From the IMG/VR virus record IMGVR_UViG_3300029951_000019: a DNA stretch of 64,000 bases; one strand, 5' to 3'. Source of the DNA: an uncultured virus (IMG/VR IMGVR_UViG_3300029951_000019). Taxonomy: Duplodnaviria; Heunggongvirae; Uroviricota; Caudoviricetes. The number at the start of each line of letters is the position of its first letter. Position 1 is the first letter of the stretch. Position numbers and translations under genes: made by a program. Of this stretch, positions 24,767 through 60,149 are shown one piece after another. The notes under the pieces are model-generated. The model saw only the letters and a program-made list of their open reading frames with translations, was not told the origin of the DNA and did not search any database.

Positions 24767-24947
24767 TGCTAGGGGGCAATTTGCCAATGAGCACATACTA
24801 TCCAAGTCGAATGCTCATAAGCAAATAGTGGCCCGTCGGACGGCTCCCCGATGGCCGGAGGTGGGGTGATGTACTCGACAAGATCGCCCTGACCACTATG
24901 GTTGCTCTCTAGCAACATGCAGACGGGCAGCAGCCCGCTCACTAGCA
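24767..24947. promoter_or_regulatory. Lysis/lysogeny switch operators TGCT-N4-AGCA (five boxes)
   Basis: Boxes at 24767-24778, 24782-24793, 24812-24823, 24903-24914 and 24936-24947 between divergent HTH genes. Confidence 0.7.
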
Positions 24948-24969
24948 TCGAGACGTGGACGGGACGGGC

Positions 24970-52280: not shown

Positions 52281-54773
52281 ATGATGCCGCTGCCCGGCAA
52301 CCTCACGGGAGTCACGCTCACCGGCACGTACGTCACCGCTGTCGGCACGCCCTGCGCGGGCACGGTGACGTTCAGCCTCGACTACGTGATCGCCGATGCC
52401 ACCGGCTCGGTCATCCTCTATCCGTCGGCGACCGTCGCGACCCTCGACACCAACGGGCACTTCTCGATCGAGCTCCCGGCGACGGACGACACGCACCTGT
52501 ACCCGGAGCCGTTCACCTACCGGGTCCTGGAGAAGCTGGCCGGCGCGCAACCGCGCACCTACTCGATTTCGCTGCCCGGCAGCCTCGCGCCGACGGTCGA
52601 TCTGTCCGCGATTACTCCGACGCAGCCCCTGACCCCCGTCGGCGTCACGATCTCGGGTACCCCGACCACGGGCCAGGTCCCGACCGCGACCGGGCCGAAC
52701 ACGGCGGACTGGCAGACACCGTCGGGCGGCGGCAGCGGTGACCTGCTCGCGGCGAACAACCTCTCCGATATCGACTCAGCGAGCGCAGCCCGCACCAACC
52801 TGGGGCTCGGCAGCGCAGCCACTCAGGCCAGCAGCGCCTTCGATGCAGCAGGCACCGCCGCGACCGCACAGAGCAACGCCGAGGCCTACACCACCAGCGA
52901 GATCGCCGCCGAGGTGTCCCGCGCCAACGCCGCATACCCGGCTCTGGCCAACAACCTCTCGGACCTGCCGTCCGAGAGCACCGCCCGCGCCAACCTCGGA
53001 TTGGCCTCCGGTGCCACGGCCGCAGCCGCGACCACCGTCGTTGCCGAGAGCAGCTATGGCCAGATGTCGGTCGTGGGTACCGACCTCACCTACGCCCGCG
53101 AGGACCACAGCCACGGCACCCTGTCACTGGCCGGCAGCGCACCGGCCACTACCGAGGGCGTCGGCCAGGCGGCCGCGCTCGGCTCGGCGACACTGCCGGC
53201 CCGCGCGGACCACGTCCACCCGCTCGCAGCGGCTGGCGCACCCGCGGCCTCGGCGGTGACTAGTACCCAGACCACTGGCGTGGCCAGTACGTTCGCGGCG
53301 TCCGATCACGTCCACGCGCGCGAGGGCTGGGGCGCGCCCACCGCGCAGACGAGCTTCGGTGCGTCCTCCGCGACGGGGAGTGCCTCCACCGTCCCGCATT
53401 CCGACCACACCCACGGCACGCCGACGCTCCCCACCGCGTCAACATCGGTCGCCGGGGTCGTGCAGCTCGACGGAACCGCGAGCGACATCCAGGCCCTGGG
53501 TGCGCAGGCCGCTGGGTCGTCCGGCCTCGCGGCCGACGCGAAGCACGTCCACCCCACCACTGGCCTGGTGCTGGGCGTGACCGCGGCCGACACGTCCATC
53601 GTGGTCGGCGGCACCAGCGGAGCGCCGACCGTCCGGACCGCGACGCTCGACGTCATCGCCACCCAACACCCCGCAGCAGCGGCCTGGTCCAACGGCGGGC
53701 AGAAGATCACCGGCGGTGCCAATGGCGTCTCCGGGACCGACTTCGCGCTCGTCCAGCAACTCCCCGCCGCCGCCACCAGCGGTGCCGAGGGGACCATCCA
53801 GCTCGCGGGCGACATCGGCGGCACCGCGACATCCCCGACCGTCGTCTCCACCCACCTCGCCTCCGCGCTGCCCGTCGCGCAGGGCGGCACCGGGCAGGCC
53901 AGCACGAGCGCCGCCTACAACGCTCTCGCGCCGACCACCACGCTCGGCGACATCGCCTACGCCAACGGGACGGGCACCAACACCCGCCTCCCGGGATCCA
54001 CGTCGGCGACCAAGCAGTACCTGCAGCAGACCGGCAACGGGTCCGCCTCGGCCGCGCCCGCCTGGGGCACCATCGCGGCCGGTGACCTGCCCGCAGCGAC
54101 GACCTCGGCGGTCGGCGGCATGCAGTTCGATGGCACCGCCACGGACATCAACTTCCTCGGCGTGCAGGCCGCAGGCTCAACGGGTAAGGCGGCCGATGCC
54201 GGGCACGTGCACCCGGCCTACGAGTGGATGCCCTCCGATCAGGGCCTCATCGCCTGGAACTACGACCCGTCCAGTGCCGGGACCACGTGGGTACCGACGT
54301 CGACGACCAACGGCTACCTGTTCCTGACCGCGATGATCCTGCGGCAGTCCGCCACGCTGACGAACATCGTCTACGGCCTGTCCGGGGCCCAGACGAGCGG
54401 CCTGACCAGCGGCGAGAACCTGATCGGCCTCTACAACAGCAGCGGCACCCTGCTGACGCAGACCGCCGACCAGACCACCATCTGGTCCACCACGGCCGAC
54501 CAGAAGGTCAACACCGTCCCCTGGACGACCCAGCAGACGAACCTCGCGGCAGGCAAGTACTACGTGGGCTTCCTCTACAACGGGGTCATGACCGGTGCCG
54601 CCCTCAATTTCAAGGCGTCCGGCGCGGGCACCACCGCCAACGCCGGTCAGACTGGCGCGAACCTGCGCTACGGCGTCATCACCGGAACCGCCACCTCCCT
54701 GCCGAGCAGCATCACCCTGTCCAGCATGGCCACACCGTCGCCGTTCAACAGCCAGTGGCTCGGCTTCAGCTGA
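52281..54773 (+). CDS. Tail/head fibre protein
   Basis: N-terminal LDTNGHFSIELPATDD anchor; NNLSD repeats; six HxH motifs; C-terminal beta domain. Confidence 0.8.
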   Translation: MMPLPGNLTGVTLTGTYVTAVGTPCAGTVTFSLDYVIADATGSVILYPSATVATLDTNGHFSIELPATDDTHLYPEPFTYRVLEKLAGAQPRTYSISLPGSLAPTVDLSAITPTQPLTPVGVTISGTPTTGQVPTATGPNTADWQTPSGGGSGDLLAANNLSDIDSASAARTNLGLGSAATQASSAFDAAGTAATAQSNAEAYTTSEIAAEVSRANAAYPALANNLSDLPSESTARANLGLASGATAAAATTVVAESSYGQMSVVGTDLTYAREDHSHGTLSLAGSAPATTEGVGQAAALGSATLPARADHVHPLAAAGAPAASAVTSTQTTGVASTFAASDHVHAREGWGAPTAQTSFGASSATGSASTVPHSDHTHGTPTLPTASTSVAGVVQLDGTASDIQALGAQAAGSSGLAADAKHVHPTTGLVLGVTAADTSIVVGGTSGAPTVRTATLDVIATQHPAAAAWSNGGQKITGGANGVSGTDFALVQQLPAAATSGAEGTIQLAGDIGGTATSPTVVSTHLASALPVAQGGTGQASTSAAYNALAPTTTLGDIAYANGTGTNTRLPGSTSATKQYLQQTGNGSASAAPAWGTIAAGDLPAATTSAVGGMQFDGTATDINFLGVQAAGSTGKAADAGHVHPAYEWMPSDQGLIAWNYDPSSAGTTWVPTSTTNGYLFLTAMILRQSATLTNIVYGLSGAQTSGLTSGENLIGLYNSSGTLLTQTADQTTIWSTTADQKVNTVPWTTQQTNLAAGKYYVGFLYNGVMTGAALNFKASGAGTTANAGQTGANLRYGVITGTATSLPSSITLSSMATPSPFNSQWLGFS

Positions 54774-54784
54774 AAGGAGCGGCC

Positions 54785-55231
54785 ATGGACCTCGCCAAGC
54801 CCACCCCGCCACCTGCCCCGGTCCGGACCGCGAAGCCGCCCGCGCCGCGCCCGGGCTGCCACGGCACCGGCTGCACCACGGTGCCGCTCGTGCAGTGGCG
54901 ACGCCGCCTCACCGCGGCCGAACTCGACACCGAGCAGGCCGCGGAGACCGGCCGCCGGGCCGAGCGGTACCTGCTCCGCGACGTGCAGAAGCCGCCGCCC
55001 GTCGAAGGCCCCATGCCCGACACCAGCGACTACACGCACGCCGTGTACGCCTGCGGCGGCCACGCCATCGCCATGGACGCCGCCGCGCTCGTCCACGCCG
55101 CAGACTGCGCCGGACCCAACTCGGCGACACTCCCCGACTGCGGGTGCACACCCGAACCCGCGGTGCCGACAGTGCTGCCCGTGCAGGAACTGCCAGCGCA
55201 CTGGACCGCCGCCCCGGTAGGGAGCAGCTGA
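54785..55231 (+). CDS. Hypothetical Cys/His-containing protein
   Basis: GAAAGGAG RBS; coupled to terS. Confidence 0.6.
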   Translation: MDLAKPTPPPAPVRTAKPPAPRPGCHGTGCTTVPLVQWRRRLTAAELDTEQAAETGRRAERYLLRDVQKPPPVEGPMPDTSDYTHAVYACGGHAIAMDAAALVHAADCAGPNSATLPDCGCTPEPAVPTVLPVQELPAHWTAAPVGSS

Positions 55232-55998
55232 TGACGAGGCGCCGGCCGCGGCCGGGCGACCATCCTTGCGCCGGGACGTACAGCGACAAGTACAAGCGGC
55301 GCCCGGATCTGGTCGGCCAGCCCTGCCGGCAGCCCGCACTACCCGGCGAGGAGTTCTGCTCGCGGCACCGCCCCATCCCGGACGAGAAACGCTGCACCGC
55401 GCACCTGTCGAAGAACCATCCGAAGGACCCCGGGGGCCGGTGTCCGTGCCCGGCGCTTCCTGGGCAGCGGGTCTGCGGGTTCCACGGCGGCAAGACGCCG
55501 CAGGCCCTCAAGGTCGCGAAGACTCGGGTCGCCGAGGAGAGAGCGAGGAAACTCGTGGCCACCTACGGCCTGAAGATCGAGACGACCGCCGTCGAGGCGC
55601 TCCTCGACGAAGTCCAGTGGACGGCCGGGCATGTCGCGTGGCTTCGCGGTCGCGTCCAGGAAATCGAGGCGGAAGCGCCCGACGGCGACGGTGAGAACCC
55701 GCTCATCTGGGGTCGCACGAGGCGTAAGGAGGGCGGCGAGGACTGGGGTGAGACCCATGAGGCCGTCGCCAGTATCTGGCTGCGCCTCTATCAGCAGGAG
55801 CGCACCCACCTGGTGCGCGTCTGTGCCGAGGCCATCAAGGCGGGCATCGAGGAGCGCCGCGTCAAGTTGGCGGAGAGCCAGGGCGAGCAGGTTGCTCAGG
55901 CAATCAGGGGAATTCTCAACGACCTGAACCTGACGCCGGAGCAGCTCGCCCGAGTCCCCGACATCGTGCCGCGTCACCTGCGGGCTCTGATCAGCTGA
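55231..55998 (+). CDS. Terminase small subunit (HGGxSTG-like zinc motifs)
   Basis: CGFHGGKTP motif; directly upstream of terL. Confidence 0.7.
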   Translation: MTRRRPRPGDHPCAGTYSDKYKRRPDLVGQPCRQPALPGEEFCSRHRPIPDEKRCTAHLSKNHPKDPGGRCPCPALPGQRVCGFHGGKTPQALKVAKTRVAEERARKLVATYGLKIETTAVEALLDEVQWTAGHVAWLRGRVQEIEAEAPDGDGENPLIWGRTRRKEGGEDWGETHEAVASIWLRLYQQERTHLVRVCAEAIKAGIEERRVKLAESQGEQVAQAIRGILNDLNLTPEQLARVPDIVPRHLRALIS

Positions 55999-56013
55999 GC
56001 CGAGGGGGCGGCA

Positions 56014-58551
56014 ATGACCGCCACCATGGACTGGGCCGAGTACGCGGCCCGGGAGTTCGAGAAGCCCGACACGCTGACGGTGCTGGGCTTCGAACCGGTC
56101 TGCAAGCCGCGGGTCCTCGCCCGACTGGCCGGGACCCCCGAGGCCGACTTGCCGCCGATGTGCGGGACTTGCCCGCAGGAGCGGTTCCTTGCCCTGCCCG
56201 ACGAAGACCTCGACGTGCTCTACGGCGGGGCTGGCGGCGGCGGCAAGTCCCAGAGCTTGCTGGCCCTGGTCATCCGCACCTGCGTCCGCTTCCCCGGCAT
56301 CCAGATCTTCTGGTTCCGCAAGACGTTCCCGCAGCTGAACCAGTCGGTGCTGCGGAACCTGGCGCGATACAACTACGCCAAGGCGGTCGGCGGAATCTGG
56401 AACGGCTCGAAGTACGAGCTGCGGTTCCCCGGCAACTCGATCCTGACGTTCGCGCACGCGAAGAACATGGAAGAGGCCGCCGCGCTCAGTAGCGCGGAGA
56501 TCAACATGCTCGTCATCGATGAGCGCACCACGATGCCGCCTGAAGTCGTGGACTTCCTCTACACGCGCATCCGCTCCGGCGTCGAAGGCGTGCCCTGCCT
56601 CGGCGCACGCTCCGCCAGCAACCCCGGCCACATCGGGCACGGCGTCGTCAAGGACGACTACGTCGACGCCACCGACTACGGCACCAAGGAGATCGTCGAC
56701 AGGGCCGGGCGGCGCCGGATCTTCATCCCCGCGAAGGCGTCCGACAATCCGTACGTCGGCGACTACGAGAAGAGCCTCGAAGGCATCGCTGACCCGGACC
56801 TGCGTGCACGCATCAAGGACGGGGACTGGTCCGCGATGCCTGACGCCGCGTTCCCGGACTGGAAGCGCGACCGGATCGTCGTCCCGCCGTGCGAGCTGCC
56901 CGCATCGTGGCAGCGGCGCGGCGGCATGGACTACGGCTGGGCAGCGCCGTCGGTGTACCTGGCCGCGGCGAAGGACGGCGACGGGCGGCTGTGGTTCTAC
57001 CGCGAGCTGACGATGGTCCAGACACCGGAGCGCGAGCAGGCCCGGCAGATCCTCGACGCCAACGCCGGCCATCATGTGCTGGCGATCGCGGCCGACCCCG
57101 CCATGTGGGGCAAGACGGGGTCCTCGCTCCCGCCGGCCGATCAGATGGCGACCGAGGGCCTGCACCTGACGAAGGCCGACACCGACCGGCTCGGCGGCAA
57201 GGCCCGCATGCACACCTACCTCGCCGAAGCGCCAGCGTGCGCCTACCACCGCGAACTCGGTTGGGCGACCTGCCCGCTGCTGCATATCCTCGACGGCGCC
57301 TGCCCGCAGTTCACGAAGACCATGGGCGAGCTGCCGCGCGATCCGCACCGGCCGGAGGACGTCGACACCGATGGCCCAGACCATTGGTACGACGCCTGCT
57401 TCGTTGCCGGGACGCTGATCTCCACGAGCCGCGGCGACGTCCCCATCGAGGACGTCCGCGTCGGCGACGAAGTGATGACCCGACAGGGGTGGCGACGGGT
57501 GCGCGACTCAGCTCGCACTGGCATTGCGCAGCCCGTACTCAAGGTCTCAATGAGCAACGGACGCGAGCTGATTGGAACCGGGAATCATCCCGTCTTCGTG
57601 CAGGGGGAAGGCTTCGTTCGGCTCGATTCCCTGAGATACCTTGATAGAATTCAGACATGCCACGCAAGCGCCCAAGGGTTGAATCTGTCGTCTTCAACGG
57701 CATCACTTTCCGCCGCTATCCGGACGCCAAGCGCAGAACTGAACAGGTCTACTTCACGCCAGGCGGGAGTCATCGCGCGCGCGGCGTCGGCCGCCTCCAT
57801 CAGGAAATCTGGAAGGCTGCACACGGCCCGATACCCGAGGGCTTCGATACCCATCATCGGGACCACGATCCAGACAACAACTCGATCGACAATCTCGTCT
57901 GTGTGCCCAACGAGGTCCACCGCTCTCATCACGGGGATCAGCCGCGGAGCGATGCTCAGCGCACGGCATGGGCGGCTAACCAGCAGCTGGCCGCAGAATG
58001 GCACCGCAGCGACGAGGGGCGTGCCTGGCACTCCGAGAACGGAAGGCGAGCTTGGATCGGGCGCGAGCCGCGCACGCTGGCGTGCGCGCATTGCGGCGAG
58101 GTGTTCGAAACTACCGACCGCAACGAATCGACGCGGTTTTGTTCTGGGAAGTGCCGCGCCTATGCCCGAAAGGCGAGCGGAATCGACGACGTGGACCGCA
58201 CGTGCGAGGGCTGCGGCGAGACGTTCCGCATCAATCGCTACGCCTCGACCCGAAATTGCTCCCGCGCATGTTCTTGGACTGTCCGACGCCGGACGGGCTG
58301 ACGTATACAACCTTTCCGTCGAAGACGTCGAGGAGTACTTCGCCAACGGCGTCCTGGTGCACAACTGCCGCTACCTGATCATGTCGATCGGTGGTGAGTC
58401 CCGCTGGCACTTCCCTGGCGAAGAGCCTGAGACAACCCACGTCGACCCGCAGGCCCAACCCGCGGTCACCGTTCCTCTCCCTCCGGCGCAGCTGCCGACG
58501 AGCTTCGGCGGTTTCCCCGTCGCGACGGGGGGCGGTGGACCGTGGGGCTAG
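56014..58551 (+). CDS. terL: Terminase large subunit containing an intein
   Basis: YGGAGGGGKS Walker A; VIDE Walker B; SNPG; GMDYG; DHWYDA|intein|CRY. Confidence 0.95.
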   Translation: MTATMDWAEYAAREFEKPDTLTVLGFEPVCKPRVLARLAGTPEADLPPMCGTCPQERFLALPDEDLDVLYGGAGGGGKSQSLLALVIRTCVRFPGIQIFWFRKTFPQLNQSVLRNLARYNYAKAVGGIWNGSKYELRFPGNSILTFAHAKNMEEAAALSSAEINMLVIDERTTMPPEVVDFLYTRIRSGVEGVPCLGARSASNPGHIGHGVVKDDYVDATDYGTKEIVDRAGRRRIFIPAKASDNPYVGDYEKSLEGIADPDLRARIKDGDWSAMPDAAFPDWKRDRIVVPPCELPASWQRRGGMDYGWAAPSVYLAAAKDGDGRLWFYRELTMVQTPEREQARQILDANAGHHVLAIAADPAMWGKTGSSLPPADQMATEGLHLTKADTDRLGGKARMHTYLAEAPACAYHRELGWATCPLLHILDGACPQFTKTMGELPRDPHRPEDVDTDGPDHWYDACFVAGTLISTSRGDVPIEDVRVGDEVMTRQGWRRVRDSARTGIAQPVLKVSMSNGRELIGTGNHPVFVQGEGFVRLDSLRYLDRIQTCHASAQGLNLSSSTASLSAAIRTPSAELNRSTSRQAGVIARAASAASIRKSGRLHTARYPRASIPIIGTTIQTTTRSTISSVCPTRSTALITGISRGAMLSARHGRLTSSWPQNGTAATRGVPGTPRTEGELGSGASRARWRARIAARCSKLPTATNRRGFVLGSAAPMPERRAESTTWTARARAAARRSASIATPRPEIAPAHVLGLSDAGRADVYNLSVEDVEEYFANGVLVHNCRYLIMSIGGESRWHFPGEEPETTHVDPQAQPAVTVPLPPAQLPTSFGGFPVATGGGGPWG
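57642..57650 (+). promoter_or_regulatory. Extended -10 promoter for a leaderless internal transcript
   Basis: TGaTAGAAT followed by 6 nt and the ATG at 57657. Confidence 0.65.
57657..58301 (+). CDS. HNH endonuclease overprinted in an alternative frame inside the intein
   Basis: LHQEIW..AHGPIPEG..THHRDHDPDNNSIDNL; C-terminal CAHC/FCSGKC/CEGC/CSRAC zinc ribbons. Confidence 0.9.
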   Translation: MPRKRPRVESVVFNGITFRRYPDAKRRTEQVYFTPGGSHRARGVGRLHQEIWKAAHGPIPEGFDTHHRDHDPDNNSIDNLVCVPNEVHRSHHGDQPRSDAQRTAWAANQQLAAEWHRSDEGRAWHSENGRRAWIGREPRTLACAHCGEVFETTDRNESTRFCSGKCRAYARKASGIDDVDRTCEGCGETFRINRYASTRNCSRACSWTVRRRTG

Positions 58552-60149
58552 GAGCACGTATCCGCGATGCCTTCCGCCGGACCCCGGTAGCCGAGGCCGC
58601 CCCGGCCGGTCCGTCGGCTTCGGCTGCGGCGGGCGCGCAGCGTATCGGCTACGAGTACGGCACGGCGCTCATGCCGACGACGTCGCGCACCGCGGCAGCG
58701 TACAGCCAGGAACGCCAGCAGGTCATGACGCAGCTGTACCAGGCGTACCTGACGTGCCCGTGGGTGGCCGCGCCGATCGATCTGATCGCACGCACGGTCA
58801 CTGCGGGCGGCCTGCAGGTGGTGTCGGATGCGCTGTCGGACGACGGGACAGTGCCGCCGGACACGCCCGAGGTGACACGGCTGCGCCGCCTGATGCGGTA
58901 TGTGAACCCGCGCCAGGACATGGTGCAGCTCCTGCGGTCCGCTGTGATCGACCTGAACTTGTTCGGGGACGCGTACATCGAGATCGTGACGCTGCTGGGC
59001 GAGCCGGTCGCGCTGTACACCCTGGACTCGACGACGATGACGGTCGTCGCGGACGCGCACGGCGAGGTCACCGGGTACATCCAGGTTGTGGACGGCCTGG
59101 GCGGCACGCGGACGGCCGAGTTCACTCCGGAGCAGGTCATCCACATCTCGCTGGACGCGCCGCGGGGTGGCTCCTACGGGGTGGGTCCGACGCAGAAGGC
59201 ACTGCTGCCGGTGACGGCGTGGCTGTTCACCGAAGCGACGATCAAGGAGTGTTTCCGCCGGGGCGACCCGCCGCGGATCCACGTCGACCTCGGGCACCTG
59301 TCCGACACTGAGGTGCAGCGGTGGCGCGAGCAGTACATGGTCTTCAATCTGGGGCCGAAGGCGGTCGGCAACCCCACGATCACGACCGGCGACGGCAAGG
59401 TCGAGGTCCTGGACCCGCGCAAGGTCACCGACTACCTGGCCGCCAGCAAGCAACTGCGCGACGAGATCATCGCCACGTTTGGTGTCCCGCCGGGCAAGCT
59501 GGGGATCATCGAGTCCGGCAACCTGGGCGGCGGCACTGGGGAGTCTCAGGACAAAACGCTGCGAATCAACACCATCATCCCGGTGCAGTCCCTCGTCCTG
59601 GAGAAGATCAACTTTCATCTGCTGCAGCAGGGCTTCGGCATCGAGGACTGGCACCTCGAATTCCCCGAGATCGACTACCGCGACTCGACGACCGTTGAGA
59701 ACATCCGCGACACCCGCCTGCGCAACGGCTCCTACACCCTGAACCGCGTCCGCGACGAGATCGGCGAACCCCCCGTCGACGGCGGCGACGACCCGGTCCT
59801 GGTCGACCGCCAGAACCTCGTCAAGTGGTCCGACATGGACGCCATGTCCAAGGCCGGCATTGCCATGAAGCTCAAGGGCACCTCCCTGGAGCCCGACGCC
59901 CCGACACCCGGCACCCCGGTGACGCTCAGCAAGCCGGATCCCGTTGAGCCGCCCGTTGTCCAGCCCGTCCCGTTCGACGCGTCGCCGCTCGGCCCCGAGG
60001 ACGGCCCCGGCCTGGCCGGCGACCTGCCGCAAGGCACGGGGCCCCGCGAGAGCCTCGACGAGGAATGGCGGCGCACCTACCGGGCGCGCCGCACCCAGGC
60101 CCTCGCCGAACTCCCGCCTGCCCGCGAACTCGTAGGAGCAGGGAGGTGA
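58542..60149 (+). CDS. Portal protein (HK97-like)
   Basis: DLNLFGDAYIE, FTPEQVIHI, YGVGP, IIATFGVPP, TLNRVRDEIGEPPVDGGD. Confidence 0.92.
   Translation: MGLGARIRDAFRRTPVAEAAPAGPSASAAAGAQRIGYEYGTALMPTTSRTAAAYSQERQQVMTQLYQAYLTCPWVAAPIDLIARTVTAGGLQVVSDALSDDGTVPPDTPEVTRLRRLMRYVNPRQDMVQLLRSAVIDLNLFGDAYIEIVTLLGEPVALYTLDSTTMTVVADAHGEVTGYIQVVDGLGGTRTAEFTPEQVIHISLDAPRGGSYGVGPTQKALLPVTAWLFTEATIKECFRRGDPPRIHVDLGHLSDTEVQRWREQYMVFNLGPKAVGNPTITTGDGKVEVLDPRKVTDYLAASKQLRDEIIATFGVPPGKLGIIESGNLGGGTGESQDKTLRINTIIPVQSLVLEKINFHLLQQGFGIEDWHLEFPEIDYRDSTTVENIRDTRLRNGSYTLNRVRDEIGEPPVDGGDDPVLVDRQNLVKWSDMDAMSKAGIAMKLKGTSLEPDAPTPGTPVTLSKPDPVEPPVVQPVPFDASPLGPEDGPGLAGDLPQGTGPRESLDEEWRRTYRARRTQALAELPPARELVGAGR

Follow-up and report, generated by a model that had tools for sequence, protein, structure and literature searches.

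An HNH endonuclease gene lying out of frame inside an intein is a layout already in print, for brucellaphages since 2015 and as a class in preprints of 2025-26, and it is described here for terL, the gene of the large terminase subunit (TerL), of an uncultured virus of the Caudoviricetes (IMG/VR record IMGVR_UViG_3300029951_000019). The DNA analysed is one stretch of 64,000 nucleotides (nt), called the window below. A nested out-of-frame HNH gene was noted in 2015 in the terL intein of brucellaphages Tb and Pr (Perisivirus) (Virology Journal, PMC4422536). Gosselin et al. (bioRxiv 2025) reported 63 non-canonical inteins among 784, including some with an endonuclease VII-like gene in 'reading frame 3' and with terL among the host genes, and proposed that they originated when an intein was invaded by free-standing homing genes. 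Arsenault et al. (2025) described an out-of-frame HNH gene in a methylase gene and speculated on leaderless initiation. An out-of-frame LAGLIDADG endonuclease in a cyanobacterial dnaX intein was reported by Phillips et al. (bioRxiv 10.64898/2026.09.14.751524), who cite Gorbalenya 1998 on non-canonical inteins. Dassa et al. (Nucleic Acids Research 2009, PMC2677866) described fractured genes, in which a split intein has a free-standing homing gene between its halves.

The original prediction for the window, made from its sequence alone, proposed a terL intein whose homing endonuclease is a separate, overprinted gene with its own leaderless promoter, and left open whether such an architecture had been described; the papers above answer that question, since the layout was already published. 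The reading preferred here, to which we give a probability of about 80%, is that terL of the window carries a two-part element, an intein that is spliced and an HNH homing gene in the -1 frame that is started independently.

An HNH gene overprinted on the terL intein

The features that make up the locus, all on the plus strand, are the following.

56014..58551, plus strand: TerL precursor open reading frame (ORF), 845 amino acids (aa), with no stop across the intein (ORF list)
56014..57396, plus strand: N-extein of TerL, C-terminal end ...GPDHWYDA (sequence, translation)
57397..58365, plus strand: class-1 intein, 323 aa in the TerL frame, from Cys1 to His-Asn, then Cys+1
57397..57654, plus strand: N-terminal splicing subdomain, blocks A and B (hidden Markov model (HMM) E 4e-39; predicted local distance difference test score (pLDDT) 97)
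57642-57650, plus strand: extended -10-like element TGATAGAAT, with hexamer TAGAAT at 57645-57650, then 6 nt, then ATG at 57657
57657..58301, plus strand: HNH homing-endonuclease gene, 214 aa plus TGA, offset +2 (= -1) relative to TerL
57658..58299, plus strand: nuclease gene as read in the TerL frame, a linker of about 195 aa that is rich in S/T/R/A and has no stop
57795..57920, plus strand: HNH catalytic core, nuclease residues 47-88 (Pfam stretch)
58083..58271, plus strand: two C-terminal zinc ribbons, C143, C146, C162, C166 and C183, C186, C201, C205
58290..58365, plus strand: C-terminal splicing subdomain, blocks F and G (...VYNLSVEDVEEYFANGVLVHN; HMM E 2e-16; pLDDT 94-98)
58366..58551, plus strand: C-extein of TerL, beginning CRYLIMS... 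(sequence)

The intein lies where it had been predicted: Cys1 is the TGC at 57397-57399, His-Asn the CAC AAC at 58360-58365 and Cys+1 the TGC at 58366-58368, which gives the extein junction ...DHWYDA/C...HN/CRY.... Taken alone, the intein matches Hint_2 with 38.8 bits (cut-off 28.4) and Intein_splicing with 38.0 bits (cut-off 35.8). Block B, of the form T-x-x-H, is T61-G-N-H64 at 57577-57588. Among 43 relatives C1, H64 and N323 are invariant and T61 is present in at least 90%, and the +1 residue is C, S or T in the listed relatives, one of which ends at its locus edge. In the AlphaFold2 (AF2) model, built with 43 homologs, residues 1-92 and 290-323 form beta-rich halves with pLDDT 94-98, and residues 95-285 stay below 50. 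The N-terminal splicing subdomain can be aligned with the TerL inteins of Tetrasphaera phage TJE1, Acinetobacter phage Highwayman, Clostridium phage phiCDHM19, Rhodobacteraceae phage LS06-2018-MD07 and IMG/VR locus L013. The sequence features of a class-1 intein are present, namely the nucleophile, block B, His-Asn with the +1 residue and the profile match, as is a predicted Hint fold. The intact motifs, in a terminase that is essential, suggest that the intein splices TerL.

In the relatives, the insertion sites lie no more than a few residues from a single conserved TerL motif, with junctions such as ...NH/C.DALRY, ...HDDx/CD.. and ...LDA/CVWA.., compared with ...DHWYDA/CRY here. The H-x-x-D motif at the insertion site belongs to what we take to be the RNase H-like nuclease domain of TerL. 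A blastn search with the intein found nothing in the phage collection, and Arthrobacter phage terminases that appeared to align into the intein proved to be intein-less. Short contigs of runs X10 and X11 match only block F/G (window 58332-58368) with 3 differences and have unrelated flanks, which suggests that these peat communities also contain another, related intein.

The nuclease gene lies wholly between splicing blocks B and F, and the C-terminal splicing subdomain shares DNA with its last codons. As had been predicted from the other frame, it encodes a complete HNH nuclease with zinc ribbons. Its product matches HNH_3 (PF13392; E 1.2e-13, 50.9 bits, cut-off 24.8) and phrog_15471, 'HNH endonuclease' (E 3.5e-36); Endonuclease_7 gave no Pfam match at E <= 0.01. 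Among 49 homologs H48, H66, H67, N75, N79, H88 and H92 are invariant, as are seven of the eight zinc-ribbon cysteines, the eighth (C205) being present in at least 90%. The AF2 model built with these 49 homologs has a mean pLDDT of 96.1, with beta-hairpins at residues 139-152 and 178-193. The best solved relative is I-HmuI (PDB 1u3e), found by profile at E 0.0033 over nuclease residues 37-121. The structural similarity of the two is modest (VIA Z 6.4, root-mean-square deviation 6.9 over 109 residues, about 14% identity), and a Foldseek search of PDB with the elongated nuclease model gave no match at E <= 0.001, I-HmuI coming up at E 0.17.

The HNH gene is overprinted on the TerL frame over about 645 nt. 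When only the window is considered, the TerL frame stays open in 28% of the synonymous shuffles made of the HNH ORF; in such GC-rich DNA an open TerL frame is therefore unremarkable, and the comparative evidence decides. When the nuclease was searched by tblastn in 50,697 phage records, 54 of them matched, and in four the match lies beneath the terL annotation, these being the four named phages whose N-terminal splicing subdomains align with that of the window. In those four and in L013 the nuclease stands at offset +2 and the terL frame is stop-free. For the two AT-rich phages among them, an open TerL frame appears in just 3e-4 and 2.5e-4 of synonymous shuffles, and 25 and 33 stops occur in the third frame.

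A pattern scan of IMG/VR with the nuclease alignment confirmed at least 237 relatives among 594 candidates, and the best 80 relatives were classified by HMMs of the N- and C-terminal splicing halves (six seeds). Both halves lie in one frame with no intervening stop, and the nuclease at offset +2, in 65 of the 80. Over these 65 loci, which range in GC from 0.28 to 0.63, the intein frame contains 0 stops and the third frame 1010. The halves share a frame but have 8-17 stops between them in five loci, the nuclease is free-standing without intein halves in four, a single half was detected in four, and the halves are in different frames in two. A contiguous, in-frame version of the HNH gene occurs in none of the 80. 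Of 52 loci in genome contigs, ten combine an open intein frame and a nuclease at offset +2, one, in a Methanimicrococcus bin, is interrupted by a single stop, 17 have either one half or two halves that differ in frame, six are free-standing and 18 lack a full-length nuclease match. The ten open loci come from bins labelled Chloroflexia, Bacteroides, Ignavibacteriaceae, Sodaliphilus, Acidobacteria, Planctomycetales, Rhizobiales, Patescibacteria, Roseomonas and a Halobacteriales archaeon, bin labels being an unreliable host assignment for viral contigs. Selection clearly keeps the TerL frame open across the relatives. Related terL inteins also turn up in DNA of viruses or proviruses assigned to archaea (H88/H89, Caudoviricetes sp. 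vir335, with the host given as Methanomassiliicoccales; L108; L128), and in L108 and L128 the nuclease is present besides the intein.

The frame under purifying selection was examined through codon positions, in pairs sharing 50% or more of their nucleotides, a range in which saturation weakens the signal (the de-duplicated nuclease alignment holds zero pairs at 70-99.5% identity). In the splicing blocks, read in the TerL frame, differences at codon positions 1/2/3 number 12082/10251/19622, with the third in excess. The middle of the intein gives 8242/12487/8820 in the TerL frame, with the second in excess, and 10039/9504/14463 in the nuclease frame, again with the third in excess. The second TerL position is the third of the nuclease, and so purifying selection passes from one frame to the other within the intein. 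Pairwise global BLOSUM62 scores for the same DNA in five phages run from 168 to 394 in the HNH frame and from -101 to 56 in the TerL frame. Purifying selection thus acts in the nuclease frame and is relaxed in the overlapping intein frame. The Hint halves are confidently modelled, and the TerL-frame middle, which was described at the outset as a featureless linker, has pLDDT below 50 and is not conserved; it is accordingly a spacer that only avoids stops. The dual coding of 645 nt that had been proposed, with both frames kept open in homologs and selection in the HNH frame instead of the intein frame, is borne out on each of these points.

Start signals of the nuclease gene

The extended -10-like element stands exactly where it had been predicted, six nt before the ATG of the nuclease, and falls in the intein codons for L-D-R-I. 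The pattern TGNTANNNT-N6-RTG has one match on both strands of the 64 kb, at the nuclease start, with 0.37 expected in the window. The codons in and around the element are AGA, TAC, CTT, GAT, AGA and ATT, several of which the phage otherwise avoids: in the exteins and the portal gene AGA is used for 0 of 74 Arg, ATT for 1 of 46 Ile, CTT for 1 of 92 Leu and GAT for 8 of 76 Asp. GC dips to 0.56 at about 57525-57750. Just 5' of the start, TGA TAG closes the nuclease frame, which speaks against a long frameshift fusion. A looser scan of the window (TAnnnT matched at 4/6 or better, 6 nt, A/GTG, ORF of at least 60 aa) found one further site, at 24955, where TAGCAT, 6 nt and GTG (24937-24957) precede a 182-aa ORF with a third-position GC (GC3) of 0.89; this is a possible second leaderless start.

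Start signals were surveyed in 84 distinct relatives, whose counts are not independent because the relatives are phylogenetically related. A -10 hexamer lies 5-8 nt before the start in 19 of the 84, at exactly 6 nt in 17 of these (background 2.6% per position), and a Shine-Dalgarno sequence accompanies it in none of the 19. In 29 of the 84, mostly low-GC, a hexamer matching in at least five of six positions lies 12-40 nt upstream (background 6.2%), mostly together with a Shine-Dalgarno sequence. The start signals are thus conserved in two forms, a -10 box exactly 6 nt before the start or one farther upstream plus a Shine-Dalgarno sequence. The free-standing relatives L011, L020 and L053 share the 6-nt geometry.

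The predicted promoter of the nuclease has good support from the comparison and from codon usage, and a dedicated promoter with a leaderless start is somewhat more likely than not here. The genome-contig loci with this geometry lie in bins labelled Acidobacteria and Patescibacteria, and neither an actinobacterial host nor a link of the geometry to Actinomycetota finds support. A -10 box within intein codons would offer a testable answer to the question, left open in the 2025 papers, of how hidden nucleases are expressed.

Proposed element, its relatives and alternative explanations

The preferred two-part element can be laid out as follows. A selfish element would have inserted at the conserved HxxDA-(L)RY motif near the C-terminus of TerL. 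Its first part would be a class-1 Hint-fold intein; the disordered loop between its halves, about 195 residues long, would merely have to stay stop-free, and after translation the intein would excise itself and restore TerL. The second part, written in the loop's -1 frame, would be a complete gene of free-standing type for an I-HmuI-like HNH protein with two zinc ribbons, started independently of TerL. The likeliest route here would be an extended -10 promoter within the final codons of the N-terminal half, whose leaderless transcript would have the ATG at 57657 as its 5' end. We infer that the nuclease nicks or cuts the intein-less terL of co-infecting relatives, with a cleavage specificity for that site, and that repair would then copy intein and nuclease gene together.

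The same nuclease family occurs in other settings. It is free-standing directly 3' of terL in Pseudomonas phage PAE1, L011 and L012, and 5' of terS in Acinetobacter phage BP10, whose terL is intein-less. In L028, L067, L083, L086 and L087 the nuclease lies between intein halves with the TerL frame broken by the 8-17 stops mentioned above, and in Vibrio phage 1.245.O (L006; NC_055736, 2250-3374) it lies between terL intein halves with many TerL-frame stops. Its nuclease ORF is unannotated in the RefSeq record. Such split loci are fractured genes with a presumably trans-splicing intein. The free-standing genes of L011 (141-815), L020 (2396-3136) and L053 (2468-3115), all from IMG/VR, have a remnant of the intein N-half motif just 5' of the start (LDATRYAVL, DACRYNI and DALVWDDIL, respectively), which suggests either escape from an intein or a cassette that includes the remnant. 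The presence of contiguous, fractured and free-standing forms of one nuclease family side by side agrees with a model in which a free-standing homing gene invaded a mini-intein.

Three further loci belong beside these. In Clostridium phage phiCD119 (L007; AY855346, 778-2595) terL is annotated as a short 'ter2' and a separate ORF3; unlike in phiCDHM19, there are 3 TerL-frame stops inside the intein and the nuclease frame is interrupted too, either by decay or by early sequencing errors. Vibrio phage 1.194.O (L098; MG592563, 1501-2900) has a related intein in a helicase-like gene annotated as 'coil containing protein', with a featureless in-frame middle and, at offset +1, a 263-aa ORF with CxxC pairs that gave no match to the HNH profile; this ORF may be an out-of-frame nested nuclease of a different family. 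The uvsW helicase of Salmonella phage CF-SP2 (L100; 811-3279) is annotated as uvsW_1 and uvsW_2, and a 295-aa ORF lies between the N- and C-terminal intein halves, another fractured gene.

A bolder version of the two-part reading, offered tentatively and held to be rather less probable than not, treats the nuclease as a self-contained expression cassette that has moved repeatedly between overprinted, intein-splitting and free-standing states, with its promoter in intein codons. The promoter would then lie in the last strand of the N-terminal half, where L-R-Y-x-D-x-I is read as ...GATAnnAT, and would yield a leaderless mRNA in some hosts and a leadered mRNA with a Shine-Dalgarno sequence in others. 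If this were true, intein and nuclease would form a loose, ancient alliance across bacterial lineages and archaeal bins, not a fused element, and the nuclease's own promoter, not late terminase expression, would set its timing. In a quick tree of 87 nucleases the eight free-standing rows need eight changes and the split forms mostly cluster.

Several points weigh against the two-part reading or its cassette version. The tree is weakly supported, and its well-supported branches force only two or more changes. No intein-less allele or joint was seen in the contigs of four runs, although contigs cannot show absence; mobility of the window's own copy accordingly stays a supposition. Neither promoter geometry is present in 36 of the 84 surveyed relatives, whose kinship further weakens the counts. 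A generic sigma-70 scan of 55800-58800, which needs a -35 box, returned 0 promoters. The -10-like box overlaps the conserved intein residues L-R-Y-x-D-x-I, so that part of its conservation could be coding constraint. The closest nuclease in genome contigs comes from a Chloroflexia-labelled bin, and a TerL identity of only about 33% to Arthrobacter phages leaves an actinobacterial host unsupported.

Two of these points, the overlap with the conserved motif of the N-terminal splicing half and the empty sigma-70 scan, are what would be expected if the layout is as described but the nuclease gene lacks a promoter of its own: ribosomes would then start internally on the late terL mRNA to make the nuclease, and the -10-like box would have arisen as a side effect of conserved intein codons. 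A Shine-Dalgarno sequence before the start in 21 of 32 relatives with GC below 0.45 would likewise permit internal initiation on any transcript. This explanation is nevertheless less likely than not, if the strongest of the alternatives, because of several observations. The window's ATG has no Shine-Dalgarno sequence within 4-18 nt; the phage otherwise avoids the codons of the box; the spacing is so exact in relatives that lack a Shine-Dalgarno sequence; and free-standing homologs keep the same geometry. In one GC-rich control (n=1), the in-frame LAGLIDADG portal intein of Mycobacterium phage Colt, the box is missing from the aligned position. A terminator scan of 55800-58800 found 0 terminators.

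A second alternative leaves the layout in place and changes the function, making the HNH protein a domesticated accessory nuclease that aids terminase DNA cutting in packaging, as do HNH proteins encoded beside the terminase genes of HK97-like phages. The homologs always lie within or beside terminase genes (in terL, 3' of terL or 5' of terS), the 2015 brucellaphage paper brought up a packaging role for its own nested HNH (PMC4422536), and Xu and Gupta (2012) discussed packaging roles of terminase-linked HNH nickases. Set against this are the sporadic distribution of the nuclease, with related terminases that lack it (for example those of Arthrobacter phages and BP10 TerL), a best solved relative that is an intron homing nickase, I-HmuI, and a slot between intein splicing halves that is the classic position of a homing endonuclease. 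Packaging HNH proteins, such as those like HK97 gp74, which act with terminase in cos cleavage, are about 100-130 aa and of the PF01844 type; the window's nuclease, with 214 aa, HNH_3 and DNA-binding zinc ribbons, is unlike them in family and size. The fractured-gene relatives agree, moreover, with the homing-gene invasion model of Dassa et al. (2009). Domestication is thus improbable.

Programmed -1 ribosomal frameshifting from the TerL/intein frame, which would yield a fusion of N-extein, N-intein and HNH, would suit a nuclease frame that is -1 relative to TerL in every embedded relative, an offset that is constant because the composite element shares common descent. It is very improbable, given the TGA and TAG in the HNH frame directly before the ATG, the stop-to-start distance of 3-15 nt in many relatives, the -10 box or Shine-Dalgarno sequence that precedes the starts, and the lack of any slippery heptamer in 57620-57700. 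An artefact, in which two compensating frameshift errors disguise an ordinary in-frame HNH intein, is what the original prediction had named as a refutation, and it can be dismissed: contigs of four other runs (urban, peat twice, soil) match without insertions or deletions and span both intein junctions and both ends of the nuclease ORF, which excludes assembly error, a second IMG/VR contig is identical, the ORF has its own stop and its own start right after in-frame stops, and the 80 relatives include 65 with the same open offset and none in frame.

Around the intein, the N-extein is recognised as terminase large subunit by phrog_2 (E 8e-25) and phrog_979 (E 8e-24). The gene 3' of terL is the following.

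58542-60149: portal gene (phrog_12, E 1e-40)

Directly 5' of terL, the last 190 residues of the ORF at 54595-55998 match phrog_3678, of unknown function (E 1e-51); from its position this ORF could be a candidate small terminase subunit. The virus record G001 (76,321 bp; 82% complete by CheckV) has 99% of the window's sampled words in common and contains the nuclease gene at 100% identity. Sequence of the window was detected in peat, urban and soil metagenomes. A 7.8-kb contig of urban run X5 differs from the window at 13 positions, all in the N-extein (56643-57182), with 0 differences in the intein or the following 1.8 kb (57183-59000); the confinement of the differences looks like a recombination boundary 5' of the intein.

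Comparison with known systems

The nuclease family and the insertion site in the window differ from the published brucellaphage and actinophage cases. Literature searches on the HNH family of the window's TerL intein found nothing beyond the papers cited here, the supplementary tables of Gosselin et al. lying outside the search. The closest match in layout is the brucellaphage intein, for which GenBank JN939331 annotates ORF07 (terL) as 'intein present' and has the HNH gene ORF08 nested at offset +1. Both are terL inteins that contain, on the same strand but out of frame, an entire HNH gene with zinc ribbons, and in both the TerL frame is open. The brucellaphage offset is +1 and that of the window +2; the brucellaphage intein sits in the ATPase half (TerL residues ~181-506), and its nuclease has N-terminal zinc ribbons and a C-terminal PF01844 HNH. 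Only a 34-residue HNH core of the two nucleases aligns (hhalign 90.8%, BLASTP E 0.001). The differing offset, site and domain order, together with the core-only alignment, point to an independent origin of the brucellaphage layout.

The inteins of Gosselin et al. (2025) share the design class, the third frame on the same strand, terL hosts and a foldless in-frame middle. Their type D belongs to the endonuclease VII family (IPR004211), whereas the window's nuclease is HNH_3 and I-HmuI-like, and the phages of that study were not retrieved by tblastn with the window's nuclease or N-intein. Unlike the cases presented there, the window's family spans many bacterial lineages and some archaeal bins. 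The case of Arsenault et al. (2025) is alike in having a zinc-finger HNH in the third frame of a host gene with an open frame; it differs in its host gene and in having no surrounding intein, and that study identified no promoter. It showed no similarity to the window's nuclease by tblastn at E 1e-5. The dnaX intein of Phillips et al. resembles the window's in an overlapping-frame endonuclease under purifying selection with a relaxed extein-frame overlap, and differs in being in a cellular gene, of LAGLIDADG type and at another frame offset. The fractured genes of Dassa et al. (2009) correspond to the state met in five of the 80 IMG/VR loci and in Vibrio phage 1.245.O, whereas in the window the intein frame is contiguous and terL unsplit. 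I-HmuI itself is an HNH homing nickase of the group I intron of Bacillus phage SPO1; it is intron-encoded and has no pair of C-terminal zinc ribbons.

Compared with these systems, the hidden, out-of-frame homing endonuclease extends beyond a few brucellaphages and actinophages: a single I-HmuI-like HNH family in terL inteins recurs at a constant offset in hundreds of viral contigs whose GC ranges from 28% to 63%. There is a practical consequence for annotation, as gene callers give either TerL or the nuclease, or split TerL, as in phiCD119, Vibrio phage 1.245.O, and BP10 versus Highwayman. What is mainly added to the published cases is evidence, from comparison of relatives, for start signals within intein codons, together with the coexistence of overprinted, fractured and free-standing states of one nuclease family.

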